64,000 nt of DNA. It comes from a virus. Position 1 is the stretch's first letter, and each line of letters opens with the position of its first letter. The notes under the pieces are model-generated. The model did no database searches and was not told the origin of the DNA. It was given only the letters and a program-made list of their open reading frames with translations. The stretch covers positions 1-64,000 of the IMG/VR virus record IMGVR_UViG_3300015263_001568; one strand, written 5' to 3'. A program made the position numbers and the translations under genes. Below are positions 20,122 to 47,042 of this stretch, piece after piece.

Positions 20122-20820
20122 TCACTCGACTTCCCAAGAATCGGAACCGTCATCGGTATCGGCTGACGCAAAGTCTAGATCGTCATCGTCTTCCATTGCG
20201 TGCAGCTTTAGCTGAGAAGACTTCTTGGACTTCTTCTTGTCCTTCTTGCTCTTCTTCGCCTTCTTGTCCTTCTTCGGGCGCCCACGCTTCTTGGGAGCCT
20301 CCTCCGTTTCGGCCTCGACGTCCTTGTCCTTCTTCGGGCGCCCGCGCTTCTTAGCAGGAGGAGCCTCGTCAGCCTCGGCGTCCTTGTTCTTCTTCGGACG
20401 CCCACGCTTCTTGGGAGCCTCGTCAGCCTCGGCGTCCTTGTTCTTCTTCGGGCGCCCGCGCTTCTTGGGAGCCTCTTCCGTGGTCTCAGACTTCCTCGGG
20501 CGCCCGCGCTTCTTGGGAGCCTCTTCGGCCGCAGCAGCAGCCTTCGGAGGACGTCCACGGCGCTTCTGTGGCGCTGGCGCTGTATCGGCACTCTCCGTCG
20601 CTGGAGCGGCAAGTGGCTCCACCTTGTCGATGCTCTGCACATCTGCGGTAGGAATGTACCGCGTGATGCGCTGATGCAGTGCTGGGCGGCCTCGCCCCTG
20701 CTTCACTACAACATCGAATTGGACCTGCACGAAGCTGCTATCCATTCCGAGAAGCAAGCCATCGACGTTTGCCTTCTTACCTTTGAGGGTTACGCTTACC
20801 TGTTCGGCCTTCTTTGGCAT
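20122..20820 (-). CDS. HMGA-like AT-hook DNA-binding protein with Sm-like N-domain
   Basis: 7 RGRP cores (mostly KKRGRPKK), acidic C-tail EDDDDLDFASADTDDGSDSWEVE, AGGAGG RBS. Confidence 0.85.
   Translation of the reverse strand: MPKKAEQVSVTLKGKKANVDGLLLGMDSSFVQVQFDVVVKQGRGRPALHQRITRYIPTADVQSIDKVEPLAAPATESADTAPAPQKRRGRPPKAAAAAEEAPKKRGRPRKSETTEEAPKKRGRPKKNKDAEADEAPKKRGRPKKNKDAEADEAPPAKKRGRPKKDKDVEAETEEAPKKRGRPKKDKKAKKSKKDKKKSKKSSQLKLHAMEDDDDLDFASADTDDGSDSWEVE
20265..20565 (-). repeat. Tandem coding repeats of the AT-hook unit
   Basis: Repeated cttcttcgg[ga]cgccc[ag]cgcttctt units on the plus strand. Confidence 0.85.
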
Positions 20821-20850
20821 TTTGCCTCCTATCGTCTGCCGACTGTCTGT

Positions 20851-22446
20851 CTATGTGAGGTCTTCACGTAGTCGAATGAATCGGTTAAATCGTCCAATCG
20901 CAACTTCTGTCTTATCACCTTGAACGCGAAAGTCAACCTTCATCCCAACGATGTCTTTGCGTTTTTGCCAGTACGTCATACGCTGGTCGTTATCCGACGC
21001 ATGAGCAAACCCCCCACCAACATGAAATTGGCGCCCTTTGTACTTCACCACAAAGTAGCCGAGGCGCTCACCATAACGGTACGAGCAATGCCCCTTCCGA
21101 TGCGTAGAAATCCGGCGGTCCGTCGCATCACTAATAGCTTCACGTAGTTCGGCGCTAAGTGCCCGCGGCCGATCTACAGAACAATGCAAGTACGAACCAT
21201 CGTCTTCGACAGATCCCCACTCCTCCATGATGGCACGTACCTTCTTGACGTCTGCCTTGGAGGCACCCGCGTGCTTGCCCTTACCCGCCACCGCATCAAC
21301 GATGGTACCGGTCACATCATCCTCTGGCTTCAACTTCAGGCACAGGTCGGTACGCTTGAACACATGTGGTGCCTTGGGGTCTTTGACCATGATGCCTTCA
21401 AACGATTGGTCGAGGCACCAATCGTAGTAGGCTTGCATCTCGTCCACGTCCAACACCATCCGATGCGCCAGAATCCACACATTGCTGGAAAATTTGGCAA
21501 CGCGCTTGGCTTTTTGCCAATTGGCTACCGTTGACAATAGCGCCCTTTTACGACGGCTCCACGCCACGTCAAACGATCCGCGCATGTAGTTTGGCAGCCA
21601 GGACCAATCGAATAGCACGCAGCGCACTTCCTTCAAAAAGTCGCGCTTGTTGAAGTTCTTTGTGCTGCGGATCAAACTTGACGTACGGTTCCAGCTTCCA
21701 TCCACTGCCAGAAATTCACCGTCCAAAAAGACGGGTTTGTCTTCGCGCGTCTTGGTGATGCGGTTAAGCGCGCGAGCGATATCACAGAGCTGCGAAGAAA
21801 ATTCCGCTACCTGCTCGATGTGCTCACGGCGCTTATTTCCGCGCGTGTAAATGTGAATGCGCTGCTCAGCCGGAAAGGCAAATACCAATGCGCGCTCGCC
21901 ATCCAGCTTGGGCTCCACCGCCAAGGGAAAACGTGGGCGCTTGCTGCCCTTGTAGACGTCTTCGTACTTCTTTGCCAGCAAGCAGCCGTTAAAGCTCCAT
22001 CCGCGGTCTTTTTCCTCGGTAGAACGCCAGAAGTCCTTTCCCCAAATCTTGGTGATGGTCTTTTTGCTTACACCGATACGTAAATCGTGGTTGAGGATGC
22101 GGCGAAACCACTTCGCGAGATGCTTGGGAACCGACACCAGTAGCCGGTCTGTAGCCATGGAGGCTGTCTGCCCAGTCATTTCGCGTGACGTCAAAGCCTT
22201 TGCCAAGCGCACGAACTTGTCCCACGCTTCCCGCTCATCGGGAACCGTTACCGCCGGGACAAGGTTGGCAGTAGGATGCACATGGTACATGTCGCCACCG
22301 AGTGCCATCAAGACAATGGTACGCAGCAACTGGTTGTCTTTTTCCTGCTCCAAGACAGTCTCTTTGGAGAGGCGACTAGACATGTTCTCCATGTGATCGA
22401 GAGCCTTAATAGCGGCCTCGATTTCTGCCTTCGTGACGCGCGGCAT
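20851..22446 (-). CDS. lig: ATP-dependent DNA ligase
   Basis: Motif I EPKLDGER, motif III FLDGE, IIIa LFD, IV EGIMVK, V KLKP. Confidence 0.93.
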   Translation of the reverse strand: MPRVTKAEIEAAIKALDHMENMSSRLSKETVLEQEKDNQLLRTIVLMALGGDMYHVHPTANLVPAVTVPDEREAWDKFVRLAKALTSREMTGQTASMATDRLLVSVPKHLAKWFRRILNHDLRIGVSKKTITKIWGKDFWRSTEEKDRGWSFNGCLLAKKYEDVYKGSKRPRFPLAVEPKLDGERALVFAFPAEQRIHIYTRGNKRREHIEQVAEFSSQLCDIARALNRITKTREDKPVFLDGEFLAVDGSWNRTSSLIRSTKNFNKRDFLKEVRCVLFDWSWLPNYMRGSFDVAWSRRKRALLSTVANWQKAKRVAKFSSNVWILAHRMVLDVDEMQAYYDWCLDQSFEGIMVKDPKAPHVFKRTDLCLKLKPEDDVTGTIVDAVAGKGKHAGASKADVKKVRAIMEEWGSVEDDGSYLHCSVDRPRALSAELREAISDATDRRISTHRKGHCSYRYGERLGYFVVKYKGRQFHVGGGFAHASDNDQRMTYWQKRKDIVGMKVDFRVQGDKTEVAIGRFNRFIRLREDLT

Positions 22447-23600
22447 TATTCTGCCTTGGTGGTATGGTGGTGCACGGCCTTTTTGACGATGGCCGGCTTG
22501 TACAGCTCACGGAAGTCCTTGAGAGGATACGTCAACGTGATGCCCGCGTGCACGCCTTCGATGCAAATCAGCGAAACCTGCCCTGCGGCATTTTTCGCCA
22601 CGAAGCCCTTGCATGCCATTCCGGTAGCACGGTCCGTCCACGTCACGGTGTCGCCCAGCGCGAACTTGAACTTTTCCTTGTCCTTCGTGCTGCCACGTCG
22701 GCGCATGACGACGCTGTAGTCGCTGAAGAACCTACGCGCGAGGTCGATCTGCTCAGCGTTGGTAAAGCCATTCAGAATATCCTGAACGCTTTGCAGTGCG
22801 TCATCGATCTTCAGCGCCGGATAGGACCTCTGGCACTTTTCCTCGAACCACTTCAACACGCGCTCTTGTCCCCGCAAGTAGTTGTAATGAACTTCCGAAG
22901 CGCGCTTGAGAAGCTCAATCGTGGGCTCGTCCATCCCCATAGCCTCTGGCACCACGTCGGCCATCTCATGGCTAATGAAGAATGACTGGCAGCTCCACTT
23001 GTCCTCACGCATCGGCTCGCCGCTGACCGTGTTCTTCTCGCTGCACACCGCTCCATGAGGGCCTACATACTTCCACACTGCGCACTGTCGGCATTCCAAG
23101 GGGATGACATCGCCGACCACATAGTCCTTACCAGCATGCTGGTAGCCCTTCTGCACTGTGTAGGTAGACGGTAACTGTTTCGGCTTCGGTCCACGCTTTG
23201 CTTGCTCCTTGGAAGACGTTGCAGCCTTTGCAGGCGCAGCAGACTTTACAGGAGCTGCCTTCGCTCCCTTTTTTGGCGGAGCGGGCTCGTCATCCTCGTC
23301 TTCGTCTTCATACTCGAAATCATCATCCTCCTCGTCGCCATCCTCCTCTTCATCGAAGTCCTCGTCGTCTTCGTCCTCGTCGTCTTCGTCGTCCTCCTCT
23401 TCGTCCTCCTCCTCTCCATCCTCGCTATCTTCCCCGTCCTCGCTATCTTCCCCGTCCTCATCCTCATCGTCGAACTCTTCGTCGTCCTCGTCTTCCCCTT
23501 CCTCGTCCTCGAACTCTTCGTCGTCCTCGGTAATATCCTCGTCTTCGTCGTCCAGTGCCTCAACCGCGGCTTCTAGCTTTTTCCGGCTATCCTTAGACAT
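22446..23600 (-). CDS. Protein with about 90-aa D/E N-terminal tract, Cys cluster and C-terminal KOW/SH3-like domain
   Basis: AGGAGG RBS; CRQC..C..C; KFALGDTVTW motif. Confidence 0.75.
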   Translation of the reverse strand: MSKDSRKKLEAAVEALDDEDEDITEDDEEFEDEEGEDEDDEEFDDEDEDGEDSEDGEDSEDGEEEDEEEDDEDDEDEDDEDFDEEEDGDEEDDDFEYEDEDEDDEPAPPKKGAKAAPVKSAAPAKAATSSKEQAKRGPKPKQLPSTYTVQKGYQHAGKDYVVGDVIPLECRQCAVWKYVGPHGAVCSEKNTVSGEPMREDKWSCQSFFISHEMADVVPEAMGMDEPTIELLKRASEVHYNYLRGQERVLKWFEEKCQRSYPALKIDDALQSVQDILNGFTNAEQIDLARRFFSDYSVVMRRRGSTKDKEKFKFALGDTVTWTDRATGMACKGFVAKNAAGQVSLICIEGVHAGITLTYPLKDFRELYKPAIVKKAVHHHTTKAE

Positions 23601-23608
23601 GTGGCCTC

Positions 23609-24400
23609 CTATTCGTCGTCTTCGATTTCTGCCAGGGCTCCGACAACCAATCGTATGTCATCGGCGTCGACTTTATGTTCCTGCGCAATCGCTTCGATAT
23701 TTACTTCTTCGCGGTCTTGCGCCTCAAAATAATGGTTCACAGCTTGGCCGAGATAGATCCCATCACCGTCAATGCCTTCAACCCAACGGTAAAAGCTCAC
23801 TGCGGTATTTTTTCCTACACCTACCTTGGTCAAACGCTTACACGTTTTCTTCCACAAATCCTGGCTAATGTCGTCCATCAAACGCTTCACTGTCAACCGG
23901 CGAATTCGGTCGTGGTAGCGTTCATCGACTTCTGCAAGGATTTTGTCGAACCACCATTGCAAGCGCCGCCGCGGTGCTTTAGCCTTTTTGTCTACAACGA
24001 GCGCAGCTTCTTTGACAGAGGAAGCAAGCGGGATGTCCACAGCCTCTTCCTCGATGCGTTGATTTACCACATCCGGAAGCTGCCGCAGCATCTCGACCAC
24101 TTTGCCTTCGCGTGTTACTGCGTCAATGATGGGGACACCCATACGATTAAGGTCTTCTGGATTGCCAAAAACCAGCAAGCGGTGAATGCTACTATGGTGC
24201 TCGCGCAGCGCTTGCAACTTGCTCGTATCGCGCAGTAGCACAATGTGCCGCTTGTTCGTGTCTGACAAATCCAAGTCTTCAGGCAGCTCCGGTAGTGGCG
24301 GATACACATGCATCCGCTCGCCTCGATTGTACTTGTAATGGATTACAATGACTTCTGGCGAGAGCACCGAAAAGCCTACCGCTCGCACGGTTTCGCTCAT
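23609..24400 (-). CDS. Hypothetical protein
   Basis: 263 aa within the coupled block. Confidence 0.7.
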   Translation of the reverse strand: MSETVRAVGFSVLSPEVIVIHYKYNRGERMHVYPPLPELPEDLDLSDTNKRHIVLLRDTSKLQALREHHSSIHRLLVFGNPEDLNRMGVPIIDAVTREGKVVEMLRQLPDVVNQRIEEEAVDIPLASSVKEAALVVDKKAKAPRRRLQWWFDKILAEVDERYHDRIRRLTVKRLMDDISQDLWKKTCKRLTKVGVGKNTAVSFYRWVEGIDGDGIYLGQAVNHYFEAQDREEVNIEAIAQEHKVDADDIRLVVGALAEIEDDE

Positions 24401-24963
24401 TGTTGCACTATCCTTCTTAGGCGTTCAAACAGCGGCGCTCGCGCACTGGAAAATGGGAGTACCACGGACAGGTAGCCTGTGTCAATGGCGGTGATTTCCG
24501 TGTTCAGCGGGGCCTTGGTGTTCGCATCATCGCCAATGAATTTTACCTGGATACGTTTGTTGCCCTGCACATCTTTCAGCCGAACATTAGGCTTGCTGCT
24601 GATCAAGCTTGGATGGCTGACAATTGAAAATCCGGTGTCTGTTACGATGAACGGCAGCTTTTCAGGAAGAAAGCCCGCAATCTCCTGCACTGTATTGTGC
24701 AGCAGCTTATGGGTATCATCCCAACGCTCGTCGTACTCTTGACACAAATCCCAATACAACATAGCCGCAGTCTTATCCGACTCGATGCGCGCCATGCGTT
24801 GCAGCAATGCCATGCTGGAAAGAGTAAATGAGCGGCCGTCTTTCATGAGGATGCGCAGCGCGCCATCACCGAACGATATCTGCTGCACTATGTTGGGGTT
24901 TAGGAACTCGTACAACGACGCGCTTCCTTCACGGTACATCTGTAGAAAAACGTTGACCAACAT
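24397..24963 (-). CDS. Hypothetical protein
   Basis: Start moved to ATG 24963, immediately after the sbcC stop. Confidence 0.6.
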   Translation of the reverse strand: MLVNVFLQMYREGSASLYEFLNPNIVQQISFGDGALRILMKDGRSFTLSSMALLQRMARIESDKTAAMLYWDLCQEYDERWDDTHKLLHNTVQEIAGFLPEKLPFIVTDTGFSIVSHPSLISSKPNVRLKDVQGNKRIQVKFIGDDANTKAPLNTEITAIDTGYLSVVLPFSSARAPLFERLRRIVQQ

Positions 24964-24964
24964 A

Positions 24965-27394
24965 TTAGCTTCGATCGTAGCGTGCTGCAATTTGTTGATA
25001 GCGCGCAGGGATGCCGCCTCTATACAGCGTTGACTCATTATTTTCGCGAACAGCCCACCACACTTGGTCCCAAACGGGATCTGCCAAAACTTCAGGCCGA
25101 TGGCTTACGACGAACACCGAGCCGAACTTTTGGCGCAGCATGCCTAGGATGCTGATCAAGCCAGCCGTCCCCTGCGGGTCGAGGCTTCCAAATGGTTCGT
25201 CTACAATGAGCACGTTTGTCGATGACTCTGTGTAGCGCTCTTTAAGGTCTCGCATACCAAACAGCATTGCCAATCCACTTTTGTGCTGCTCGCCTCCAGA
25301 TAGCAAGCTGCTACGCGTGGCAATATTACCATCTCGGCGACGGAGTTGGAATTGTATCGCATCCATGCTCTCTGACAACTCCAAGTCCACCGTGCGTCGG
25401 GGCCAGAGCACACTACTATACACCGGTACAGTAGTCTCAGTCGCGTCCTGCAAGATGGCGCGAAATCGATCTTGCTTGAGACCTTGGCTGCCGAATGCTT
25501 TCTTGAGGGCCTCCAGGCAGCGCTTGTTGCGCAGGATGCCAGTACCCTTAGCCAACCCCTTACGGACTTGAGCAAGCCGTGCCTGGAGCGTCTCCGATGC
25601 GCTGAGGCGCTCTTCCAGGATGGCTATCTGCCGACTCAGGTCTTCGGTCTGCGCAGTAGCGGAGCTGACGATCTTCTCGGCTCTGGCTAGCTGCTCCGCA
25701 GTCTGCTCGCGATTGCCTTTGGGAAGATCATCCATCTGGTCAATCCGAGTGCGCACCCGAGCAATAGCCTTCGCTCGTCGGCGCAGAGCGTTCGCCTTTT
25801 TGTGCAACCCGGCGATCTGCTCTTCTGGAACCGTACCGCGTGCATCTATTTCTTGTATCTGAATCTCAAGATCGTGCTTTTGCTGCGAAATTTCTTTTTC
25901 AGCCACCAGTTCTTTTTCCCGCTTGGTGGCTGTACGGATATCGCGCTGCACCTCTACCGGTGTGCGGGTGGTATCGATGGACTTGAGCCGTGCAGCTAAC
26001 TGCTCATACTTTTCTGAAGTTTCTAGCGCCGACTTGGCAGCGAATATTTCCTTCTTGACTTTACGCAGCTGCTGTCGGGCACCGCGCAGCTTTTCCCGCA
26101 GTGCTTCTGGATCGCTTTTTGTGTCGAGAGGGCGGTGGCACGTTGGGCAAACGCTCTTGTCTAAATGGCGTACTGTTACCTCTATCTCACGCTCTAGCGC
26201 CCCTTCTTCACGCATATACGCTTCTACTTGCTTGCGCAGCGGCTCAACATTTTCAGGCGGCTTGTCGAGTCCGGCCAGCTCTTCCGTGATTTCGTATCGC
26301 TGCTCAGCCTGTGGTAGCTCGGTATTTTGTAGGTAGCGCAGCTGTGACTTTACTTCGCTCAAGTCGGTGTCGATGTCCGCTAAGGCACGTCCAGACAGCT
26401 TGGACAGCTGGCGCTCAAGAATGTCTCTTCGTTGCGCTGCTTCACGTTGACGTTGCGCTGTATGATATGCATCCGACGCATCGGTGGCTTGTTGGTCGAT
26501 GGATTCGACTTCGGCGTCATCGATATCCGACGGTTTGTCGTACCATTTCCCGAGGTCTGCATCGTCCCAGATCACTCTGACCTGCTCAATAAGTTGCTTG
26601 CGCTGGTCGAGCTGGTTCAAGCGATCTCGTAGCTCCCGTGATTCCTGTACAGCCGCGTTGGACTCTGTGCGCAGCTCTTTTAGCTGGCGCTTGCGCTTCT
26701 TGAGTCTGGAACGCATTTTGTCGACATCACCAATATCGCCAGCGCGCGCTTCGAGGCTACCCAACTCGCGTTCCAAAGCCTCGATGTCGACCAAGCTAGT
26801 GGCCACGGATTTTTCACGGTCTCGGAAAATGGCGTACATGTTGTCGAAGACATCAAGCCCAAACATCTCTGTCAGGCGTTTGTAGCGATCGCTTCGCTTA
26901 CCATGCAGTAGCACATGGCTTAGCTTCTGCGGCAGGTACACCAAGTTGAAAAAGCTTGTGTCATCCAGACCTAGGTGAGCCTCACGGATCCATTTATGCG
27001 GCGCACGCGCAGCTCTGCTCGGAATGATGTTTTGGCCTGTGGACGTGTCCACAACACGGATCGCATCACCGTGAAGCGTGTGCTTACGATATTGTCGAAT
27101 TTCAAACGGGCGGCCATCTACGCGGTATTTTAGCACCGCCTCGAAGTCTTTTCCCGCAAGGTCGTTGACAACGTCGTTCTTGGAAAATTCCTGGCCCGAG
27201 CCTCGACCTCCGTAGCCTACCTGGATACTGGAAAATATTTCCCACAGTGAGGTTTTTCCACAAGCCAGGAAGCCACCATCGTCTACGTTCAATCCGCGCA
27301 CCAACACCAACCCTTGACCATCCAACGGTAAGTCGCAGTGGCGGTAGACGTAGCCGTTTTTGAACGTCAGGTGATCGTACTGAATGTGCGGCAT
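24965..27394 (-). CDS. sbcC: SbcC/Rad50-like SMC ATPase
   Basis: Walker A ACGKTS, Zn-hook CPTC in the coiled coil, signature LSGGE, Walker B/D-loop IVDEPFGSLD, H-loop VSH. Confidence 0.93.
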   Translation of the reverse strand: MPHIQYDHLTFKNGYVYRHCDLPLDGQGLVLVRGLNVDDGGFLACGKTSLWEIFSSIQVGYGGRGSGQEFSKNDVVNDLAGKDFEAVLKYRVDGRPFEIRQYRKHTLHGDAIRVVDTSTGQNIIPSRAARAPHKWIREAHLGLDDTSFFNLVYLPQKLSHVLLHGKRSDRYKRLTEMFGLDVFDNMYAIFRDREKSVATSLVDIEALERELGSLEARAGDIGDVDKMRSRLKKRKRQLKELRTESNAAVQESRELRDRLNQLDQRKQLIEQVRVIWDDADLGKWYDKPSDIDDAEVESIDQQATDASDAYHTAQRQREAAQRRDILERQLSKLSGRALADIDTDLSEVKSQLRYLQNTELPQAEQRYEITEELAGLDKPPENVEPLRKQVEAYMREEGALEREIEVTVRHLDKSVCPTCHRPLDTKSDPEALREKLRGARQQLRKVKKEIFAAKSALETSEKYEQLAARLKSIDTTRTPVEVQRDIRTATKREKELVAEKEISQQKHDLEIQIQEIDARGTVPEEQIAGLHKKANALRRRAKAIARVRTRIDQMDDLPKGNREQTAEQLARAEKIVSSATAQTEDLSRQIAILEERLSASETLQARLAQVRKGLAKGTGILRNKRCLEALKKAFGSQGLKQDRFRAILQDATETTVPVYSSVLWPRRTVDLELSESMDAIQFQLRRRDGNIATRSSLLSGGEQHKSGLAMLFGMRDLKERYTESSTNVLIVDEPFGSLDPQGTAGLISILGMLRQKFGSVFVVSHRPEVLADPVWDQVWWAVRENNESTLYRGGIPARYQQIAARYDRS

Positions 27395-27927
27395 TATGGT
27401 GTGGGTTTCTTCGGCTTCTTCGGTTTAGTGGCGGTGCTCTTAGGCTTGCTAGTTTTCGTCTTCGTTGTCTTTGCTTTACTCGTCGGCTTTACGACAGAGG
27501 TACTTTCTGCTTTTGGTTTGCGCTTAGTGGTGCGCTTTACCGGCGGAGGCGGTTCTTCCACAGTAGGAACTTCTGGTGCAGTAGGAACTTCTGGGGCAGC
27601 TTCTATGACAACTGTAGTTTCTGGCTCGATGATGGGCGTATCGATCGGCTCGGGGATGACGTCTTCCAGCACTTCTGGTGGCAAAGGCGCCATTTTTGCT
27701 TGTGCCAGCTCCAACAAACGAATGAAGTCCCCCATCAATACAAGGCGCCGGCCACGGCCCACCAAACCAGACCGCAGATGCTGCTCCTGGTCTTCACGTA
27801 GCTGCATCACTACATAGACGTTGTTGACATCCTCTTCAATAGCAGCCGCCAGATCACGGGCGTTCCTGCTAGAGAGAAATGCAGCCAACGTCACATGTGG
27901 GTCAGATTTTTCAGACATCTTACCCAC
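27394..27927 (-). CDS. Hypothetical protein with P/E-rich then K/T-rich disordered tail
   Basis: ORF track and composition; the start could instead be the internal MSEKSD. Confidence 0.65.
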   Translation of the reverse strand: MGKMSEKSDPHVTLAAFLSSRNARDLAAAIEEDVNNVYVVMQLREDQEQHLRSGLVGRGRRLVLMGDFIRLLELAQAKMAPLPPEVLEDVIPEPIDTPIIEPETTVVIEAAPEVPTAPEVPTVEEPPPPVKRTTKRKPKAESTSVVKPTSKAKTTKTKTSKPKSTATKPKKPKKPTP

Positions 27928-28141
27928 CTGTCAGTAGCGCAATGTACGGGACCAACTCAGCTGGAACAGGGTCTAGGGTTACGTTGGTGGATGGGTAATC
28001 AGCGCAGTTAGTATTTGTGCAGACAGCTTTAGTCACCACAAAATGGAACACTGTGTTTTCAGGCTCCACATCTGTGCGGCGCACTTCACTTCCCGTGACC
28101 ATGAAATTGGTGTGGTTGCCGCAGACATTGCAAGTTGGCAT
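27920..28141 (-). CDS. Small Zn-binding protein
   Basis: CNVC...CTNTNC; AGGAG RBS. Confidence 0.65.
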   Translation of the reverse strand: MPTCNVCGNHTNFMVTGSEVRRTDVEPENTVFHFVVTKAVCTNTNCADYPSTNVTLDPVPAELVPYIALLTGG

Positions 28142-28144
28142 TTC

Positions 28145-29335
28145 CTACTCTCCTTTACGCCGACGAGGTTTCTCTGACCAGGAAGACGTCACCGCAATGG
28201 CGCGCAACGTAGCCATATCGAGTAAGCCATGCTGGCTAGCGTACGATCGAGAGCGCTCTTGCACTCCGAGGAAAATGTCCAGCAGCTTGGCAATGTCTTG
28301 TATCTTCGCTACGTCGTGGTGCCCGTTTGGTAAACTAACACCTTTAAGATACCACGAATTTTGACTTATAGGAAGACGGCTTGGCTCCACCCAAGTGTAG
28401 AGAATTTGCTGAATGGTGGTGATCACACGGTTCAGAAAGAATACTAGGTCTACGGAGTCCGCCATGGCCTTTTGTACAGCAGCGAGCGTCTGCTCATATC
28501 GACCTTGGAACAACCCATCTACATACTGCTGCACGATGACGTAGCTGGCATAAGACTCCGACTCCTCCAGCACCTTCGGCAGCAGCGTTTCTAGGTCGAC
28601 TTTTCCATCAGCAACTTCCACAGCGTTTCTGAGCTGCGATAGCAAGGTCAGCGCATCTCTTGGATGACCGGCTGAAATTTCCGCGATCTTCTTCAGCCCT
28701 GTCTTCAGCTCTGCTTTCTTGAGCCCACTAGTGTGCAGTTCTTCTGCTTTGGCCACCCGCGCGAGCAGGCGATAGCACTCTGGCACCGTGACTGGGTTTA
28801 GATGGTAGCGTTGGCAACGGCTCAGAATGGTGCGCGGCACCAATTCCGGATTGGTGGTGCACAGAATAAAGCGCGTTCTCGGTGGTGGTTCCTCAAATAT
28901 CTTGAGCGCTGCTTGAAACGCGTCTTTGGTGATCTGGTGAGCTTCATCGAAGATGTACACCCGAAAGCGGCCAAAGCGCGGGGCGTACGCGATGTGCTGT
29001 TTCAGATCGCGAATATCACCGATGCCGCGGTTCGAGGCTGCGTTGATTTCCACAACGTCTGGGTGCTCCCCTTCACCACGGATGGCTTTCAACATGATTT
29101 TGCAGCTTGGGCATTCACCACAAGGCTCTTCCGCTGACTTTCGGCACACCAGATAGCGAGCGATCAAACGCGAGAAGCTGGTCTTGCCGGAGGAGTATGG
29201 GCCACTGAACAGAATCGTTGGAGCGATCCGCCCAGACTTGAGCATGCCACGGATATTATCCACGACATGTTCTTGGCCGATGACTTCCTCTAGCGTGGTT
29301 GGTCGATACTTGTTTGCGAGGCTTTTCGATTCCAT
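28145..29335 (-). CDS. dnaX: DNA polymerase III clamp loader gamma/tau
   Basis: LANKYRP..EVIGQ, Walker A GPYSSGKTS, Zn module PCGECPSC, DEAH and SRC motifs. Start set at MESKS. Confidence 0.93.
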   Translation of the reverse strand: MESKSLANKYRPTTLEEVIGQEHVVDNIRGMLKSGRIAPTILFSGPYSSGKTSFSRLIARYLVCRKSAEEPCGECPSCKIMLKAIRGEGEHPDVVEINAASNRGIGDIRDLKQHIAYAPRFGRFRVYIFDEAHQITKDAFQAALKIFEEPPPRTRFILCTTNPELVPRTILSRCQRYHLNPVTVPECYRLLARVAKAEELHTSGLKKAELKTGLKKIAEISAGHPRDALTLLSQLRNAVEVADGKVDLETLLPKVLEESESYASYVIVQQYVDGLFQGRYEQTLAAVQKAMADSVDLVFFLNRVITTIQQILYTWVEPSRLPISQNSWYLKGVSLPNGHHDVAKIQDIAKLLDIFLGVQERSRSYASQHGLLDMATLRAIAVTSSWSEKPRRRKGE

Positions 29336-29339
29336 TTGT

Positions 29340-30401
29340 CTAGTCATCCTCGTAGGGGTTGCTGAAGGAAACACCTAGTTCCTTTGCCGCCGCGTCGACG
29401 AACTTGAACGCGTGTGGCAAATACTCCTCCGGCAGACCAGCTTGCAGCAGTGTGTTGTCCAACCCGTCGAAAATGCCATGCACTCGGCGCGCATTCTGTG
29501 GAAGCGCTCGCGCCGGCATCTCTTCTCCAGGTTCAACATTCATCGGTAAAGGCATGGTGGACGTGGGCATCGCGTGGAGCTTCACAAAAGCTTCAGCCGC
29601 GCTAGGCCACACGTCAGGAACTTCATGTAGTTCAATCAGCTTGGTAGAACGTATTGGGACGTATTTCGGATTCGTTGGATCGGCGGTATCGACGACCAAA
29701 ACGCCTTTGTCGAGGTCTTCTCCAAATCTCGTTTGGTGCGGTGCGCCGCAGTACCACGCATTGGGCAAAATCGACTGCCGTTTATGGATGTCTCCAAGTG
29801 CCCAATAAGTAACGCCGTCGATCGGTTCCAAGTGCACTTGCGCATTCGACGTCACCATGAGCCCAGTATCCGTTTTGCTACCCACCACATTTTCATGCAG
29901 CACGACAATGATTGGCTCACGATGACGCTGCGCATACCGCACCATCGAGTGCACCATCAAGTAGACCTCTGCATCCTTCCACCCGTGACTGGGATCTCTA
30001 GCGGGAAACAGAAGCAGCTGACATCCATGCATCGACTTTATCAATGGCAAGCCGTCATGAATGAAATGCTTCCCCAAAATGTCGGTCATCCGGCTCAAGT
30101 AGCTAAGCGACGTATCCCCAATTTGACTTGAACGCACATCATGGTTCCCGCTGATCATCACGATGGGAACCGGCGACGACGCCAGCCAGTCCGTGAGGAC
30201 TTGTCGTTCTTGATGCAGGATGTCGCGGCGTTCCCAAATGTCACCAGCAACGATGGTAAAGTCGACGCGGTGCTTTCTAGCCGCCTTATGTATGCCCTCC
30301 AACGTCTGCACCATCCGACGCAAATACGCGGCCTGACTATGATCAGAGAACCGCCGCAGCGCATTGATGTGCAAATCGGACGTATGCAGAAACCTAGGCA
30401 T
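29340..30401 (-). CDS. sbcD: SbcD/Mre11-like metallophosphoesterase nuclease
   Basis: HTSDLH, AGD, GNHD and LGDIH motifs. Confidence 0.9.
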   Translation of the reverse strand: MPRFLHTSDLHINALRRFSDHSQAAYLRRMVQTLEGIHKAARKHRVDFTIVAGDIWERRDILHQERQVLTDWLASSPVPIVMISGNHDVRSSQIGDTSLSYLSRMTDILGKHFIHDGLPLIKSMHGCQLLLFPARDPSHGWKDAEVYLMVHSMVRYAQRHREPIIVVLHENVVGSKTDTGLMVTSNAQVHLEPIDGVTYWALGDIHKRQSILPNAWYCGAPHQTRFGEDLDKGVLVVDTADPTNPKYVPIRSTKLIELHEVPDVWPSAAEAFVKLHAMPTSTMPLPMNVEPGEEMPARALPQNARRVHGIFDGLDNTLLQAGLPEEYLPHAFKFVDAAAKELGVSFSNPYEDD

Positions 30402-30775
30402 CAGAGGTCGTGCGGCCGAGCCGTCTTGCGCGCATTCTCCTGCACGCGCTTTACAGCCTTCAGCATCATGCCATAGACTTCGTGGGCAAGAGCGCTGGTA
30501 AGCTTGGGATCGATGCGCACGTCGTGGTACTTGAAGTATTCCTTGATTTTAGAAGCGGTCAGGATCTTGACGCCCATCTCCTTAACGGCCTTCTGGTGCG
30601 CCTCCAACCGAGCGCGCTTGTCATTGCTCTGAGCCGACCCATCAGCACCCTTCTTGGACTTCTTTTTCTTCTTTGCCACAGGAGCATCACCCTCGGTCTT
30701 TGCCTTCTTCTTTTTCTTCTTCGCTGTGGTGGCGTCGCCGTCGGTGATGGTCTTCTTAGTCTTCTTTTTCTTCAT
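30401..30775 (-). CDS. Histone-fold protein (bacterial short-alpha3 type) with K-rich N-tail, from an internal start
   Basis: AAGGAG 8 nt before ATG 30775. Core ILTASKIKEYFK..VRID..SALAHEV..MMLKAVKRVQENARKTARPHDL carries the RKTxxxxD histone signature. Confidence 0.8.
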   Translation of the reverse strand: MKKKKTKKTITDGDATTAKKKKKKAKTEGDAPVAKKKKKSKKGADGSAQSNDKRARLEAHQKAVKEMGVKILTASKIKEYFKYHDVRIDPKLTSALAHEVYGMMLKAVKRVQENARKTARPHDL

Positions 30776-31318
30776 TGAGTCGGCTCCTTGTCCATGCCGT
30801 TTATGATGACATGGTATGCAGAGTGTGCGCATGTTAGCGAGGTCACATTGTCCTCCACCTTGATGCACAGGAATGATGTGGTCGGCATCCCAATAGCCCC
30901 GAGATTTTCGTGCCCCACGCGGTGCTCCCAAGATACGCTGCCAATGCATGGCATCGATAGTGCGCTCGGCAGACACAGTGTCGAGACCGCATTCTGCGCA
31001 TATACCACGGTCGCGAGAGTAGACTTGTCTGCGTAGATATCTCGGATCGCTACGGAGTTTGAACTCTTCCACACAATGGTCTGAGCAAAACGTGCGGCGC
31101 CCTTTCGGCACCTCGATTTTGCAGTAGCGGCAGAGGCTGCGGCCGTTCGCACCTTTGGGCAATAGCTGCGGGTAGCGAACACGTCCGCGGAACGCGCCAC
31201 TACGCATAGTGCCGTCTGCCTCAAAGTACATTTTCGTGTACTGTGCACGTAGTTGCTCAACCTCTGTGTCAGACAGCGCACTTAAAGGCCGACGGCGTCT
31301 TCGATGGCGTTTTCTCAT
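30401..31318 (-). CDS. HNH endonuclease fused in frame to a lysine-tailed histone fold
   Basis: RDRGICAECG, DADHIIP and NMRTLCIPCH HNH motifs; no stop before MKKKK...RKTARPHDL. Confidence 0.8.
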   Translation of the reverse strand: MRKRHRRRRRPLSALSDTEVEQLRAQYTKMYFEADGTMRSGAFRGRVRYPQLLPKGANGRSLCRYCKIEVPKGRRTFCSDHCVEEFKLRSDPRYLRRQVYSRDRGICAECGLDTVSAERTIDAMHWQRILGAPRGARKSRGYWDADHIIPVHQGGGQCDLANMRTLCIPCHHKRHGQGADSMKKKKTKKTITDGDATTAKKKKKKAKTEGDAPVAKKKKKSKKGADGSAQSNDKRARLEAHQKAVKEMGVKILTASKIKEYFKYHDVRIDPKLTSALAHEVYGMMLKAVKRVQENARKTARPHDL

Positions 31319-31729
31319 CGGCTAGTATTTGCTGCGCATAGCGACCTGGAAACGTTACAGGATTTATCTTTCGCAACATGGTCAAAATCGCTTTGGATGG
31401 CTTTACCCAACCTAACGCCAGTGCTGACAGCGCAATTGTTTGCAGGTTCTCGTCATTCAGGCATTCACGAAGAATGATCTGCTGCTGCCGCATGTCGGAA
31501 ACAAGCACGCCAAGATACACTTCCAAGGCTTGTCCACGCAGCAGAAAGTCCAGATTAGTATCTCGGATGAGGGCACGTATTTGGCGTCCGGTTCCTTTGT
31601 CATCCGAAATGATGGCGTCTTCTAGCTGCGCCAGTGCGCTTTATACTCTCGTGGTCGATCCTCCAAGAGCAAGTAGCGAACTTGTTCCAATACTGATTCC
31701 GGTGGTGATGTTGCATTAACTGGTAGCAT
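31269..31729 (-). pseudogene. Frameshifted hypothetical gene
   Basis: A 35-aa ORF from ATG 31729 (TAATG coupling) is joined by a -1 shift near 31640 to the frame ending at 31269. Confidence 0.5.
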
Positions 31730-32697
31730 TAAGACCTATGCAAAATAGCTCCTACTGGAAGCTTGGTGCTCTTCCAGCCTCGGTGCTTTTGTAGTTCCTC
31801 AACGTAGACTACCGCGGCCCCCTGTAGGCCACCGAGCTGCTGGAGCACCGCAGCAGCACGATCACGCGATGGTCGTGCCCAGAATACCGTATTCGAGCCG
31901 TCGTAGAAACTCGTGACTTTTTCAATGGGCGAATGGTCGATTTGCATCGTGAGCAGCCGCCCATGTACATCGCCCAAGCGACTATCGATCAAGTCAAGCT
32001 GCTGGTAGAAAGCTGCTGCTTGACGCCGATCAAACGCCTCTTCTGGATGCCGAGGTTGCAGCAAGCCTGTACGTCGCCGGAGACCGGCTACAAGCTGTCG
32101 CCGTGCTTCCAGGTAGAAGGCCCATATGGTTGCCGACAAAGGCTTCCTATGGGCCTCTACAGGCGTCCAGGTAGCAAGCCAGACATCCTGCGCAGCGACC
32201 GGCATCAGCCGACTCAGGGCAAACAAGCGCTGCCGTTCAACGCCCGTGCGCAGTGCATGAAAGAGGCCGAAGGCTAAACTATTGATATCATTGAAAACTT
32301 CAATGGACGAAGGCGGAAACCCAAGCCAAGGCGGACTGCCGTTACCGAGAAGGTCTACGCGCGTGCGAAATGCCTTCCAAAATGGCTCGACCACTTCTTC
32401 GACCGCACCTTTCGTGGTGAGCCACTTTGACACACTTTCTGCCCAACGAGTAGCCTTTGCCGCAGCGAGCACGAGGACGTTTCGCTGGGCATCCTGTAAA
32501 CGCTGTAGGAAGCTCTTGAGGTCACTCAAGGGTTTCGCTACCTGCCAGGTACCACTGGGGCCTTCCTTGGCGCCTCGTGGCGTCCAGGAGGCATCCCAAG
32601 ACTGTGCTGCATGGATAGTGCAGTGTGGCCCGCCGTTGCGCTTGCCGTGGATGACGCACACAGTGTCCGCAAGGCTATTCGTCATCGTCATCGGCAT
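31729..32697 (-). CDS. Hypothetical protein
   Basis: 322 aa, coupled to recA. Confidence 0.65.
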   Translation of the reverse strand: MPMTMTNSLADTVCVIHGKRNGGPHCTIHAAQSWDASWTPRGAKEGPSGTWQVAKPLSDLKSFLQRLQDAQRNVLVLAAAKATRWAESVSKWLTTKGAVEEVVEPFWKAFRTRVDLLGNGSPPWLGFPPSSIEVFNDINSLAFGLFHALRTGVERQRLFALSRLMPVAAQDVWLATWTPVEAHRKPLSATIWAFYLEARRQLVAGLRRRTGLLQPRHPEEAFDRRQAAAFYQQLDLIDSRLGDVHGRLLTMQIDHSPIEKVTSFYDGSNTVFWARPSRDRAAAVLQQLGGLQGAAVVYVEELQKHRGWKSTKLPVGAILHRS

Positions 32698-33964
32698 AAT
32701 AGCGGGACCGCGGAGCTGCGTCTGTCTTCGATTTGGTCTTCTTGGCTTTCTTTGATTTTTTGGTAACAGCTGTCGTTTCTATGACAATTGGAGTCTTCGT
32801 ACGCGGCTTCTTGGTGGTAGCCGTCGCAACCACATCCTCTCCATAGTCCTTGTCGAAGTTGTACGTACGATTACCAGAAATCTCAAAAAAGCGGTCGTAG
32901 TTTTCAGGCTGCTGCAACATCAGAAAGAACTTCTGTCGATTGCGCGGACTGTAGCTCATCTTACGAAACGATGGCAGGTCCCACTTCTTGTTATCGAGGC
33001 CCTTGAGGTTGATCGAACGCCTTCCAGCCGCCGTCTTCAAAAATCCCAAGGCTGCCAAGAATTGCTGCGTGTCGTACGCCTTATCCACGCCATGGCCTGG
33101 GATGATCTGCAAATCAACGGTGAGCCAACTAGGAAAGCACTTGTTCTTTGTGGTGCGCACCGTCGCCGGAATAATTTGGACACCCATACTATCCCGGCTC
33201 TCTTTTCCAAGTGTCTTGTCACTGCGTCGACTTACGCGCAGCTTGTAGTCCGGATAAAATCGCAGCGCTTTTCCGCCAGTTTCTTGGTCAGGGGCACCAT
33301 AGGCACCAATGTTGCTCCGCACTTGATTTGTGCCGACCAACACGCCGCCTTTTTTGCGCAGGCGTACCTTAATTTGCTTCAGGTACTGACTATGCATCCT
33401 AGGCTCCGGTGTGATGCCACCACCCGTGCCTGTTTCCTCATCCACGTTTTCACTGCTCAATGCCGCAAAACTGTCGACAAAAAATGCGATAGTTGGAGGA
33501 CCCGACGTCACATCCGGCATCCGATTAAGCGTGCGCATGATGAGGCGATATGTGTCTTCTCCCGTGTCAGGCTGTGCGTAGTAAAAAGACGCGTACTTCT
33601 GCTTACCAACGCTTAGCTTGTGCTCAATCCGTAGTCCTTGCCGCTGCATGAACACAGGATCGGCACCAGTTTCTGGATCGAGGAACACTACAGGAATGCC
33701 TTGTAGCTGTGCCGACACGGCAATTTCTTGTAGTAAGGTAGATTTACCAACGTGTTCTCCGCCAAAGATGGTGCAGAACCGACCACGCTGAAGTCCGCCA
33801 CCGAAAATCAAATCCAGCGATAGGACACCTGTAGAAAGGCAGTCGAGGACACGCTGACCTTTCATCAGATTGATTGGGTCTAATCCATCAATGGAGGCAA
33901 ACGCTTCGGCAACAGCCTGAGAAGGATGTACCAGGTTGTATTCGCGCTTTTTCTTTTTCGCCAT
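32675..33964 (-). CDS. recA: RecA/UvsX recombinase
   Basis: STGVLSLDLIFGGG, Walker A GGEHVGKST, QPDTGE, VDS, NQVR, GGKALRFY and KNK motifs. Confidence 0.95.
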   Translation of the reverse strand: MAKKKKREYNLVHPSQAVAEAFASIDGLDPINLMKGQRVLDCLSTGVLSLDLIFGGGLQRGRFCTIFGGEHVGKSTLLQEIAVSAQLQGIPVVFLDPETGADPVFMQRQGLRIEHKLSVGKQKYASFYYAQPDTGEDTYRLIMRTLNRMPDVTSGPPTIAFFVDSFAALSSENVDEETGTGGGITPEPRMHSQYLKQIKVRLRKKGGVLVGTNQVRSNIGAYGAPDQETGGKALRFYPDYKLRVSRRSDKTLGKESRDSMGVQIIPATVRTTKNKCFPSWLTVDLQIIPGHGVDKAYDTQQFLAALGFLKTAAGRRSINLKGLDNKKWDLPSFRKMSYSPRNRQKFFLMLQQPENYDRFFEISGNRTYNFDKDYGEDVVATATTKKPRTKTPIVIETTAVTKKSKKAKKTKSKTDAAPRSRYYADDDDE

Positions 33965-34348
33965 TTAGTACATCAACGGAGTGAAGATGCTGGATAGCAC
34001 GGAGTAGTTAGCCAACCCGTGATGCCGGGCTGCTTCCACTCCTCCAACACGAACACGGATTTGAGGCAGCATCGCGACGCCTAGCTCGGTGGCGCCTTCA
34101 AGTGCTTGGGTGATGACGATGGGAGCGCGAAATTCGTGCCGCTCCACAAAATGGGCGATAACGCGTTTAGCCTTCTCACTTAGAAAGTCGTCTCCGAGCA
34201 GTACGATCCCCAAGTCTGGAAATACCCTTGTAAGGCTAACCACGGCTTGCCACGGTACAGGAAGCAACCGTCCAAAGTAATAACGAATATCGGCTCTAAT
34301 GTAGTCCATTACCGTGACAAGTACAGACAAGCCGGAAGCCATAGGCAA
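33965..34348 (-). CDS. Thioredoxin-fold-like protein lacking CxxC
   Basis: ATELGVAMLPQIRVRVGGVEAARHHG resembles the Trx C-terminal cis-Pro motif; the protein has no Cys. Confidence 0.4.
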   Translation of the reverse strand: MPMASGLSVLVTVMDYIRADIRYYFGRLLPVPWQAVVSLTRVFPDLGIVLLGDDFLSEKAKRVIAHFVERHEFRAPIVITQALEGATELGVAMLPQIRVRVGGVEAARHHGLANYSVLSSIFTPLMY

Positions 34349-34397
34349 CGTCTACATTTCACTTCAGCTAGATGCTGCCCATAGCACGCCGGTGCCG

Positions 34398-36146
34398 TTA
34401 CCGCCCGCGACCTTTTCCCGAGCGCTTCTTTGCCGGTGGCTCGTCGTCCTCATCCTCCTCATCCTCGTCGTCCTCGTCCTCATCGTCTAGATCGTCGTCG
34501 TAGTCCTCATCCTCCTCATCCTCGTCGTCTAGATCGTCGTCGTCATCCTCGTCCTCGTCGTCCTCATCCTCGTCGTCCTCGTCGTCCTCATCCTCGTCGT
34601 CGTCCTCGTCGTCCTCATCCTCGTCGTCTAGATCGTCGTCGTCCTCGTCGTCCTCATCCTCATCCTCGTCGTCCTCGTCGTCCTCGTCCTCGTCGTCCTC
34701 ATCCTCGTCGTCTAGATCGTCGTCGTCCTCGTCGTCCTCGTCCTCGTCGTCTTCGTCCTCGTCGTCCCCATCCTCGTCGTCCTCGTCCTCGTCCTCGTCG
34801 TCTTCGTCCTCGTCGTCCCCATCCTCGTCGTCCTCGTCCTCGTCCTCGTCGTCCTCGTCCTCGTCGTCCTCGTCCCACTCTTCGTCGTCATCTTGTACAA
34901 AGCTACGCCCACTGGGTGGCGTCTCCGCCTCGTCTTCGTCGTCGTCATCATCATCTAGATCAGGCTTGGATGGCTTGGCCTTTTTAGCCGGCTTCTTTGC
35001 CGACTTTTTCGCGCTGCTCTTCTTTGCAGGCTTGGCATCTTCTTCATCCTCGTCCTCATCATCTAGGTCAGGCTTGGACTTTTTCGCGCTGTTCTTCTTT
35101 GCAGGCTTGGCGTCCTCATCAGCGCCCTTTTTACCTTTCTTACCCCAGCCCTTCCAGTCATCACCAGCGTCGTCATCGTCATCATCCGACTTCGATTTGG
35201 ACTTCTTCGGCTTCTCAGCCTTCACCTTGCCGGCCTTCTTGCTCTTGTCCTTGACCTTGGACTTTTTCTTATCCTTGTCTTTTGTCTTGGCGGCCTTCTT
35301 ACCCTTGGACTTCTTCGGAGTCTCTTCCTCTTCGGCATCGTCATCAGTCTCGTACTCGAAGTCGTCATCAGTGACTTTGGATTTCTTCTTGGAACTACTG
35401 CTTGTGCTCTTCACTGCGCTTCTCCCAGTTGTTTTTTCCAGTAGAGTGTAGAGACCCACCCGTTCTAGATCAATGCGTGTAGTGGCGCCGTCTTGCAGAC
35501 CGGCATTCCACATGCTCAAAAAGTCCTGTTCTCCTCCCTCGTACACGCGCTTGCCAACTTTGATTTGATAAATGTCATCGAGTTGCTTAATGGGTAGCCG
35601 GTCACCCTTTACGAACGCATCCTTTTCCTTAGAGTCCTTAGCGTCCTTATTGTGCGTCCAGTACACGGACACACCATACTTCGGATGTACGATGGTGCCC
35701 TCACCGCCCCTAATGGTCTTGCTGATATTTAGCAAGTCGGTGTACCCATACTTGTTCAACTGCATCGCCCCAGTACCGTTTTGCACATTGCCCTGCTCCA
35801 ATGCAGTAATGTTGAAACTATGTGCGATGTAGCGCCGTTGTGGGTAAAAGAGAAGTTCTTCTGGCAGATCGTCACCGGTGAAGTCAGCGCACAAAGGGCA
35901 ATCGCACTTGTTCGCCGGAAGGGTGCTATCGTTCACTGGATCGAAGTTCGAGCAAAGCTGCGGGAACGTCTTTACTTCACCCTTCTTGTTTATAAACCTG
36001 ATCCAGTGCCACACGAGCACAAAAATGTGTCCGTAAAGCCTATGGATGTGTTGTCGACCGCCAGCTGGCGGTTCGTGATAATGCGCCTTGCCGTCCCACC
36101 GTTCACGCTTGTTGCTCGTACGTGGCGGATTATTCCAATCGTGCAT
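34398..36146 (-). CDS. gp32-like single-stranded DNA-binding protein with K-rich linker and about 150-aa D/E tail
   Basis: HWIRF..QLC..CDCPLC..RRYI Zn-SSB pattern; GAGGAG RBS; position upstream of recA. Confidence 0.7.
   Translation of the reverse strand: MHDWNNPPRTSNKRERWDGKAHYHEPPAGGRQHIHRLYGHIFVLVWHWIRFINKKGEVKTFPQLCSNFDPVNDSTLPANKCDCPLCADFTGDDLPEELLFYPQRRYIAHSFNITALEQGNVQNGTGAMQLNKYGYTDLLNISKTIRGGEGTIVHPKYGVSVYWTHNKDAKDSKEKDAFVKGDRLPIKQLDDIYQIKVGKRVYEGGEQDFLSMWNAGLQDGATTRIDLERVGLYTLLEKTTGRSAVKSTSSSSKKKSKVTDDDFEYETDDDAEEEETPKKSKGKKAAKTKDKDKKKSKVKDKSKKAGKVKAEKPKKSKSKSDDDDDDAGDDWKGWGKKGKKGADEDAKPAKKNSAKKSKPDLDDEDEDEEDAKPAKKSSAKKSAKKPAKKAKPSKPDLDDDDDDEDEAETPPSGRSFVQDDDEEWDEDDEDEDDEDEDEDDEDGDDEDEDDEDEDEDDEDGDDEDEDDEDEDDEDDDDLDDEDEDDEDEDDEDDEDEDEDDEDDDDLDDEDEDDEDDDEDEDDEDDEDEDDEDEDDDDDLDDEDEEDEDYDDDLDDEDEDDEDEEDEDDEPPAKKRSGKGRGR
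34440..34895 (-). repeat. Low-complexity GAC/GAG/GAT coding repeat (D/E tract)
   Basis: tcg/tcc/tca triplets with a recurring tctagatcgtcgtcg unit (DDDLDDEDE). Confidence 0.9.
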
Positions 36147-46538: not shown

Positions 46539-47042
46539 TTGAGCCCGCGTATCGCCATCTCGACTACTGGCTACCCCGTCAAGACGGGTGTGGCAACGGA
46601 GATACAGGTTGGTAGCCTCCGTCACCTTCTACAAGCCGCGGAGAGCCTCGCTGAGCAGCCCTACCGGCTTGTGGCTATCTACCCCTTTGGCCAACCTCGA
46701 AAAGCCGTATACGACGTCCTAGACAGCCTGGAGAAGTCCCTTTGCTCTGCCAAGGTGCTGGTGGTCTGCCGGCACGGCGCGCAGGCCATAGTGCCCGACT
46801 TCCTTCAGCCGCACCAACGGCTCCGGCGGCCAAACGGGCACATCGATGTCATGGTCCACGTTGACCGTGACTTGGCGTGGGAGCCGCCCACGAATCTTTC
46901 GCTCGACATCCATCCGACGACAGGGCGATTCAGCCGCTGGGCTATTCAACAAGGCTTGGTGCCGATCGTTCTGCGCCGGATAACGTCTGTTCAAAAGTGC
47001 AAGGACCTCTACAACCTTCTAACCGCTGAGGCAGCTCTATGA
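46539..47042 (+). CDS. Hypothetical protein
   Basis: TTG start after AAGGAG; ATGA overlap with nrdJ. Confidence 0.6.
   Translation: MSPRIAISTTGYPVKTGVATEIQVGSLRHLLQAAESLAEQPYRLVAIYPFGQPRKAVYDVLDSLEKSLCSAKVLVVCRHGAQAIVPDFLQPHQRLRRPNGHIDVMVHVDRDLAWEPPTNLSLDIHPTTGRFSRWAIQQGLVPIVLRRITSVQKCKDLYNLLTAEAAL

Follow-up and report, generated by a model that had tools for sequence, protein, structure and literature searches.

The 64,000-nucleotide window analysed here, which covers the first 64 kb of a virus record of 80,099 bases (G000; IMG/VR IMGVR_UViG_3300015263_001568), carries a minus-strand block of replication, recombination and repair genes that includes four unusual proteins: a histone with a Lys-rich tail, a protein with multiple AT hooks, and two proteins with long tracts of Asp and Glu (D/E). 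We consider it reasonably likely that these proteins include architectural DNA-binding proteins working within a replication–recombination–repair module of a jumbo phage, and that their acidic tracts are exaggerated versions of ordinary disordered tails. An earlier note on this DNA had described the four proteins as interleaved with genes for ligase, SbcC, SbcD, a DnaX-like protein and RecA, and the open reading frames (ORFs) and Pfam matches confirm that arrangement. Their positions and parts are as follows.

20122–20820, minus strand: multi-AT-hook protein, 232 amino acids (Pfam AT_hook, E = 1.4e-11), with an N-terminal domain (20617–20820), a six-hook array (about 20266–20565), a Lys-rich stretch and an acidic C-terminus (20125–20211)
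22446–23600, minus strand: conserved protein, 384 amino acids, in the same slot in relatives, its stop overlapping the ligase start, with an acidic disordered N-terminus (23286–23600) and a conserved C-terminal domain (22449–23183)
30401–30775, minus strand: face-to-face (FtF)-type alpha3 histone, 124 amino acids, identified by PDB sequence matches and the FtF signature, with a Lys-rich tail of 49 amino acids (30629–30775), a histone fold (about 30404–30574) and, besides, a conserved extra N-terminal helix
34398–36146, minus strand: probable gp32-like zinc single-stranded DNA-binding protein (SSB), 582 amino acids, identified by conserved ligands, context and distant homologues, with an N-terminal domain (35412–36146), a Lys/acid region (34932–35411), a D/E block (34437–34931) and a basic end (34401–34436)

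The module is conserved across a clade of uncultured jumbo phages

Related loci were collected by a metagenome scan with a histone alignment, which gave seven, and by a scan of viral contigs with an SbcD alignment, which gave 16. Viral-contig scans with the HNH–histone protein described below and with a second histone alignment (A2) returned no relatives, and a search with the DnaX-like protein turned up distant loci only, none of which carried a histone. We sorted the relatives into group A (L007, L009, L020–L024 and duplicates), group B (L025–L027) and group C, the last comprising five more distant records of about 30% identity, one of them a complete genome of 388,485 bases. Relatives' contigs reach 260,067 and 349,793 bases, the larger of which (G007) has terminal repeats and is rated complete; since related contigs are of this size, the window is a fragment of a jumbo phage. 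CheckV puts the completeness of the 80,099-base record at 23%. The stretch is present in one sequencing run, of marine-sediment metagenome DNA, and no RNA run is among the listed sequencing runs that contain it. Megablast of the block against GenBank phages gave zero matches, and the best cultured or GenBank match to the window's SbcC is 20–28% identical. The phage is thus an uncultured one from marine sediment, in a clade without a cultured relative.

Gene order in the block is kept in at least nine related lineages (L005–L011 and L020–L027, as far as their contigs reach), with core enzymes 34–48% identical to those of the window. In groups A and B the order begins with a sigma factor, the 34398–36146 family, a 127-amino-acid protein, RecA, a 322-amino-acid protein (group A only), the histone and SbcD; it continues with the DnaX-like protein, SbcC, a 213-amino-acid protein (in some), a 263-amino-acid protein, the 22446–23600 family, ligase, the AT-hook protein and a 286-amino-acid protein. 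The co-occurrence and synteny that the earlier note had proposed to check are therefore found throughout the related lineages, within the reach of each contig. Five group A and B records, including the complete 349,793-bp G007, hold one histone each. Group C keeps the sigma factor, the SSB-like gene, RecA and SbcD; no histone, 22446–23600 homologue or AT-hook homologue was detected in its five records, among them the complete 388,485-base genome.

This distribution bears on the interpretation offered in the earlier note, that the block encodes a dedicated phage chromatin system in which histone and AT-hook protein coat the replicating genome and acidic chaperones load or remove them, for compaction or for shielding from nucleases. 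All four genes are conserved in place, and the joint presence of histone, AT-hook protein and 22446–23600 family in groups A and B, with their joint absence from group C, also fits a real functional link, a point that weighs against our own interpretation. The whole module is syntenic, however, and the shared distribution represents about one evolutionary event in a single clade, so the four genes are not specifically linked by it. We regard a dedicated chromatin system as unlikely, and further evidence on both sides of it is given below.

The histone belongs to the viral face-to-face class

The Lys-tailed histone fold reported in the earlier note is real. A phmmer search of PDB with the C-terminal domain matches HTkC (9f2c, E = 8.4e-5) and HLp (9qt0, E = 2e-3), and about 20 Lys fall within residues 1–42. 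The protein ends in R116-K-T118-A-R-P-H-D123-L, combining a truncated alpha3 with the RxTxxxxD motif, and its complete FtF signature reads R110-x3-N114-x-R116-x-T118-x4-D123. R110, T118 and D123 do not vary among 15 relatives, and R116 hardly does. The spacing of R110 and N114 to R116, T118 and D123 matches that of R48 and N52 of the FtF profile, dimer–dimer contact residues that are missing from bacterial dimer histones (PMC11390915). Caudoviricetes "viral face-to-face histones" (VFFH) with Lys-rich tails of 5–40 amino acids have already been described (bioRxiv 10.1101/2024.12.06.627149). As judged from its sequence, the window's histone is a member of this known FtF/VFFH class, because the family keeps the full FtF signature including both dimer–dimer contact residues. 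The HLp tetramer wraps DNA (PMC12701072) and, by analogy with HLp and HTkC, the phage histone is likely to assemble into tetramers by which double-stranded DNA is bent or wrapped.

The histone shares with HTkC, HLp and VFFH its sequence similarity, truncated alpha3, RxTxxxxD motif, contact Arg and Asn, and Lys-rich N-terminal tail, but differs from them in an extra conserved helix before alpha1 and in the length of its 49-residue tail, which carries a net charge of +18 and is specific to the window phage. It departs from the described VFFH in two further respects: in the window's clade of jumbo phages the gene is fixed between the recombinase region and SbcD, and in two lineages it is readable in frame from an HNH nuclease. 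The VFFH report mentions neither gene context nor an HNH link (bioRxiv 10.1101/2024.12.06.627149). No detectable copy of the window histone was found in GenBank phages, and a search of 1.84 billion representatives recovered 35 relatives, mostly small and stand-alone, among which Lys/Arg/Ala-rich tails are common and none of the 35 is fused to an HNH domain. Two of these relatives, P0010 (GPGRPKGS) and P0023 (PKKRGRPKGS), carry an AT hook within their own basic N-terminal tail; P0023 is located on a contig of 298,061 bases.

An apparently mobile HNH gene precedes the histone in frame

Directly upstream of the histone lies one further feature.

30776–31318, minus strand: HNH nuclease ORF without a stop of its own, continuing in frame into the histone (Pfam HNH, 7.5e-8; phrog_11604, 7.7e-20)

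The histone frame is open upstream as far as 31318, giving a possible HNH–histone fusion of 305 amino acids, and AAGGAG stands 8 nt before the in-frame inner ATG at 30775. Because the HNH gene lacks a stop codon, its translation must continue into the histone. An alternative assignment of the Lys-rich stretch to the C-terminus of the HNH protein, prompted by some PHROG HNH profiles that align to residues 209–232, was set aside, as those matches enter low-complexity sequence. The Shine–Dalgarno sequence with its ATG at 30775, and the presence of the 124-amino-acid form in the protein library (P0005), favour reading this stretch as the histone tail. Both the fusion and the 124-amino-acid histone may exist as products.

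The same build recurs in L025, where a 255-amino-acid ORF joins an HNH part without a stop, an inner GGAG core with ATG, and a histone. The HNH parts of the window and L025 are 51% identical, the flanking core genes 34–46%, and the histone parts give no BLAST match to each other. The HNH gene is present as a single copy in the window's record and was not found in five other related records. In a tree of SbcC and SbcD, the window clusters with group A at a support of 74, and L025 with the HNH-free L026 at 100. Like a homing endonuclease, the HNH gene has the HNH catalytic motif and a patchy distribution at one site that is discordant with the genome tree. Its identity above that of the flanks, its absence elsewhere and its non-sister carriers suggest that it is mobile, and it looks to have settled twice before the histone gene, in frame each time.

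Free-standing HNH homing endonucleases occur in large phages, for example the Mob proteins of T4. The window's HNH gene resembles these in its patchy occurrence at one site between conserved genes and in being better conserved than its flanks, but in the window and in L025, two distant lineages, it has no stop of its own. An 85-amino-acid ORF that starts with TTG (31269–31526, minus strand) shares 50 nt with the 5′ end of the HNH ORF. No homologue of it occurs in relatives, and it may be either a spurious ORF or a piece of the inserted element.

The AT-hook protein has a conserved domain that sets it apart from HMGA

AT hooks bind the minor groove and prefer A/T runs, and several of them occur together in eukaryotic HMGA and in bacterial proteins such as Myxococcus CarD. 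The earlier note had described an HMGA-like protein with seven AT-hook cores and an acidic tail. Hooks and tail are both present: six RGRP cores lie in an array of 20-residue repeats encoded by a 60-nt tandem repeat, a seventh lies inside the N-terminal domain, and the last 29 residues are D/E-rich. The protein accordingly has more than the minimum of three hooks and the acidic C-terminal tail expected of HMGA, and it is like HMGA and CarD in setting several RGRP hooks on short linkers ahead of an acidic C-terminus. It differs from HMGA in having six to seven hooks rather than three and an N-terminal domain of about 68 residues that HMGA lacks, and is therefore not wholly disordered and free of globular domains, as an HMGA protein is. 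This region looks conserved across relatives, as judged by eye from the sequences, and rules out membership of HMGA. Because the likeness is confined to short motifs, convergence is likely.

In L007, L008/L010, L020, L021, L025, L026 and L027 a homologue follows the ligase in the corresponding slot. These homologues share the small N-terminal domain, have between two and five hooks, of which some are degenerate, and finish in an acidic stretch that includes an aromatic residue; the acidic tail of the L027 homologue reaches about 110 residues. The proteins end in ASLFDESF (L021:18892–19515), ASIFDEDF (L007:10193–10870) and EALFEDDF (L020:18716–19297). The sequence of this conserved acidic-aromatic tip suggests a short peptide for binding a partner, possibly a sliding clamp.

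Runs of at least eight A/T bases are about threefold rarer than expected in the 80,099-base record (25 observed against 84 expected from shuffles). As these runs are the preferred targets of AT hooks, genome-wide coating by the AT-hook protein is unlikely, which counts against a chromatin system covering the whole phage genome. The same depletion suggests that the hooks may aim at other DNA, and so lends some weight to a role in host takeover or counter-defence, in which histone and AT-hook protein would silence or compact the host nucleoid and the acidic proteins, as DNA mimics, would soak up restriction enzymes or nucleoid proteins. Acidic proteins that mimic DNA, such as Ocr and ArdA, are known as a phage strategy. 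DMP12 is likewise a DNA-mimic protein (PMC3643605). The strong translation signals described below would also suit takeover proteins. Yet the genes sit inside a replication–recombination operon and not among typical early takeover genes, the acidic tracts are low-complexity repeats rather than folded mimics, and each is attached to a conserved globular domain that likely serves another role, in an SSB and in a protein coupled to ligase. We judge host takeover to be quite improbable, and return to our preferred reading, in which the tracts belong to proteins of the phage's own replication–recombination module.

One acidic tract is the tail of a probable gp32-like SSB

The two acidic proteins have the long D/E tracts that the earlier note had described, with 74% D/E over the first 105 residues of the 22446–23600 protein and 88% over residues 406–570 (165 residues) of the 34398–36146 protein; outside the set of four unusual proteins, none in the 80,099-base record carries such extreme tracts. 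The note had taken both for chaperone-like proteins comparable to nucleoplasmin and NAP1. For the 34398–36146 protein a different assignment is better supported. Its N-terminal 245 residues are conserved in at least ten relatives, and H47, C65, C83 and C86 are invariant across nine sequences, in the His-Cys-Cys-Cys order of a zinc site. It carries an acidic C-terminal tail and lies beside the recombinase, two genes from RecA in a conserved slot (sigma factor, SSB, 127-amino-acid protein, RecA), both of which are features of gp32-like SSBs. ESM Atlas places it near the gp32 set, to which 23 of the 30 nearest clusters belong (202 shared features, score 0.93). Group C homologues match the hidden Markov model of the family at 1e-14 to 1e-18, and two of them, L032 and L033, supply a transitive link to Pfam gp32 (PF08804) at 5e-4 and 0.032. 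When aligned to eight gp32 proteins by hhalign, with a score that is not significant (P = 0.42), the three Cys fall on C77, C87 and C90 of T4 gp32, and in the same non-significant comparison the strand "NKYG" falls opposite gp32 "YRFG". The 80,099-base record yielded no further gp32-type SSB.

Several results weigh against this assignment. Beyond the non-significant hhalign score, the window protein has no Pfam, PHROG or PDB sequence match of its own, and the matches of L032 and L033 to Pfam gp32 lie under the curated 26.8-bit cut-off. The AlphaFold2 (AF2) model of the N-terminal domain is unusable, with a pLDDT (predicted local distance difference test) score of 36.8. The tail of the window protein ends in basic GKGRGR, unlike the acidic-aromatic tip of its relatives, so it may have changed role. 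Searches with other scopes were also negative: PHROG and Pfam gave no match for four members of the family, nor did a PDB profile search or a tblastn search of GenBank phages with the N-terminal domain; a word-based search with that domain found nothing, and a later alignment search returned family members only, none of them annotated. Taking the conserved ligands, the context and the distant homologues together, we think it quite probable that the 34398–36146 protein is a phage gp32-like zinc SSB.

Acidic C-terminal tails are normal for SSBs such as T4 gp32 and T7 gp2.5, where they serve in self-inhibition and partner recruitment. The window protein resembles these two in its His-Cys-Cys-Cys ligand order, the matching spacing to the next strand, the acidic C-tail and the recombinase-adjacent gene; it differs in lacking a significant direct sequence match and in a tail that is about ten times longer and has a basic end. 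Tails of the SSB family are acidic in all relatives (net −26 to −45), with tips of the DDW, DGW or FD type. The chaperone-like label is therefore weakened for this protein, which is most likely an SSB whose acidic C-tail is ordinary in kind. Tails of the group C homologues (L030:4368–5420, L031:4459–5493 and L032:6272–7255) alternate poly-D/E with PPKKAKPKK-type repeats, and mixed-charge SSB tails thus recur in the wider group.

The gene of the second acidic protein is conserved and overlaps the ligase gene

Homologues of the 22446–23600 protein occupy the same slot in all nine lineages whose contigs reach it. Four Cys are invariant in the C-terminal domain. In the AF2 model (pLDDT 62), three long helices and a small beta-barrel accompany a beta region of poor definition. 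The protein is probably zinc-binding and probably translated together with the ligase. The barrel bears only a generic LSm/Tudor/KOW-like resemblance to known structures (Z of 6–7, with a best Z of 7.4 in a wide fold search); Foldseek gave no match to the C-terminal domain at E ≤ 1e-3, and ESM Atlas gave no lead. A complex prediction of two histone copies with this domain gave no verdict (score 0.00). In L009 an RRRGRPPKK hook separates the acidic region of the homologue (L009:16257–16736) from the globular domain.

As to nucleoplasmin/NAP1-like acidic chaperones, no chaperone family was detected by Pfam on either protein, and the fold search with the 22446–23600 C-terminal domain gave generic barrels only. 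Long D/E tracts are what the window proteins share with nucleoplasmin and NAP1; the difference is that no nucleoplasmin or NAP domain was detected and that the tracts extend an SSB-like domain in one protein and a zinc-binding, helical and beta-barrel domain in the other. A dedicated chromatin system would thus lose one of its supposed chaperones to a probable SSB and have no chaperone family or fold detected for the other.

The extreme tracts arose by repeat expansion in one lineage

Both hyperacidic tracts and the long histone tail of Lys occur in this form in the window phage alone, as tandem-repeat expansions of much milder disordered regions; the repeats found, with that of the AT-hook array, are 15, 39, 51 and 60 nt long. 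The SSB tail, built from 15-, 39- and 51-nt tandem repeats, has a net charge of −138, against −26 to −45 in relatives, and the acidic N-terminus of the 22446–23600 protein has one of −65 to −74, against −23 to −49; L027 has no acidic N-terminal region in this family. These observations invite the view that replication slippage, in disordered regions that tolerate it, produced the charged tracts as neutral by-products, and that the four genes are linked only by their shared module. The tracts are indeed tandem repeats at the DNA level, their size varies widely among relatives, L027 being without the acidic N-terminus altogether, and the synteny extends to the whole module rather than to the four genes alone. 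The net acidity of both tails is nevertheless kept in most lineages despite complete turnover of their sequence, a sign that charge is under selection, although the extreme length may not be. We hold a purely neutral origin to be very unlikely.

Translation signals in the block are uneven. A full GGAGG core or AAGGAG precedes five of the 21 starts checked, namely those of the AT-hook gene (TAGGAGG), the 22446–23600 gene, the histone (at its inner start), the SSB gene and a 73-amino-acid gene, and for the AT-hook and 22446–23600 genes the pattern largely recurs in relatives. Such strong signals fit abundant, stoichiometric proteins.

Four of these five sites belong to the genes of the supposed chromatin system, and the basic histone tail (+18) and the acidic regions (−138 and −65 to −74) are enlarged together in the window phage; in P0010 and P0023 the AT hook sits on the histone tail itself. 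All three points suit that system, of which the histone, the AT-hook protein and the conserved gene set are borne out. Its other elements fare less well, as the extreme charges belong to a single lineage and the A/T runs are depleted in the phage genome.

Other genes of the module and the record

The enzymes and other assigned genes of the module are listed here.

20851–22446, minus strand: ATP-dependent DNA ligase (Pfam DNA_ligase_A_M, 2.3e-14)
24965–27394, minus strand: SbcC/Rad50-like ATPase (weak Pfam SbcC_Walker_B, SMC_N and Rad50 zinc-hook matches; relatives 37–42% identical)
28145–29374, minus strand: DnaX-like clamp-loader subunit (Pfam DNA_pol3_delta2, 1.5e-35)
29340–30401, minus strand: SbcD/Mre11-like phosphoesterase, its start overlapping the histone stop (Pfam Metallophos, 5.5e-12)
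32675–33964, minus strand: RecA/UvsX-like recombinase (Pfam RecA, 3.6e-30)
36218–37594, minus strand: sigma-70 family factor (Pfam Sigma70_r2, 3.6e-10; synteny)

In groups A and B, and also at the group C loci L030–L033, the SSB-like gene has the sigma-70 gene as its neighbour. Between the SSB-like gene and RecA lies the 127-amino-acid gene (33965–34348, minus strand), also present in L005–L011 and L020–L024; its position is that of a recombination mediator (UvsY-like), and no family match was found for it. Genes of 177 and 73 amino acids (27394–28141, minus strand), the latter preceded by the strong AAGGAG, separate the DnaX-like gene from SbcC and are absent from relatives, where these two genes abut. 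Elsewhere the record contains a portal-like gene, DnaB, further helicases and an intein-laden ribonucleotide reductase, whose large-subunit ORF (2201 amino acids, 47039–53644, plus strand) contains three stretches each of Intein_splicing and LAGLIDADG_3.

Discussion

In the interpretation that we favour, the module would encode, beside its enzymes, four non-enzymatic DNA-associated proteins at fixed positions across the clade. Histone and AT-hook protein, presumably abundant and architectural, would act on replicating or recombining phage DNA. The histone would have gained its 49-residue Lys tail in the window phage and could also be made as an HNH–histone fusion through the apparently mobile in-frame HNH gene, while the usual acidic C-tail of the SSB would have grown to a net charge of −138 through repeat expansion. 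The acidic tracts would then not be dedicated histone chaperones.

A bolder scheme combines elements of both views. A three-part chromatin toolkit, consisting of the FtF histone, the multi-AT-hook protein and the acidic-tailed zinc-binding protein, would have been gained as a set within the replication–recombination operon; acidic regions, including the SSB tail, would buffer the basic proteins or hand them over on replicating DNA, and the HNH–histone fusion would bring a nuclease to histone-bound DNA. This scheme we consider doubtful.

What catches the eye most in the block, its giant D/E tracts and the extended Lys tail, is confined to one lineage. Histones of tailed phages have so far been known from sequence surveys alone, and here one subfamily is placed in a fixed slot of a replication–recombination module, where the histone travels with an AT-hook protein and a second conserved protein and, in two lineages, stands in frame with an HNH nuclease. 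Concrete proteins are now available with which to ask whether a phage histone organises phage DNA and whether it interacts with the long acidic tail of the SSB.

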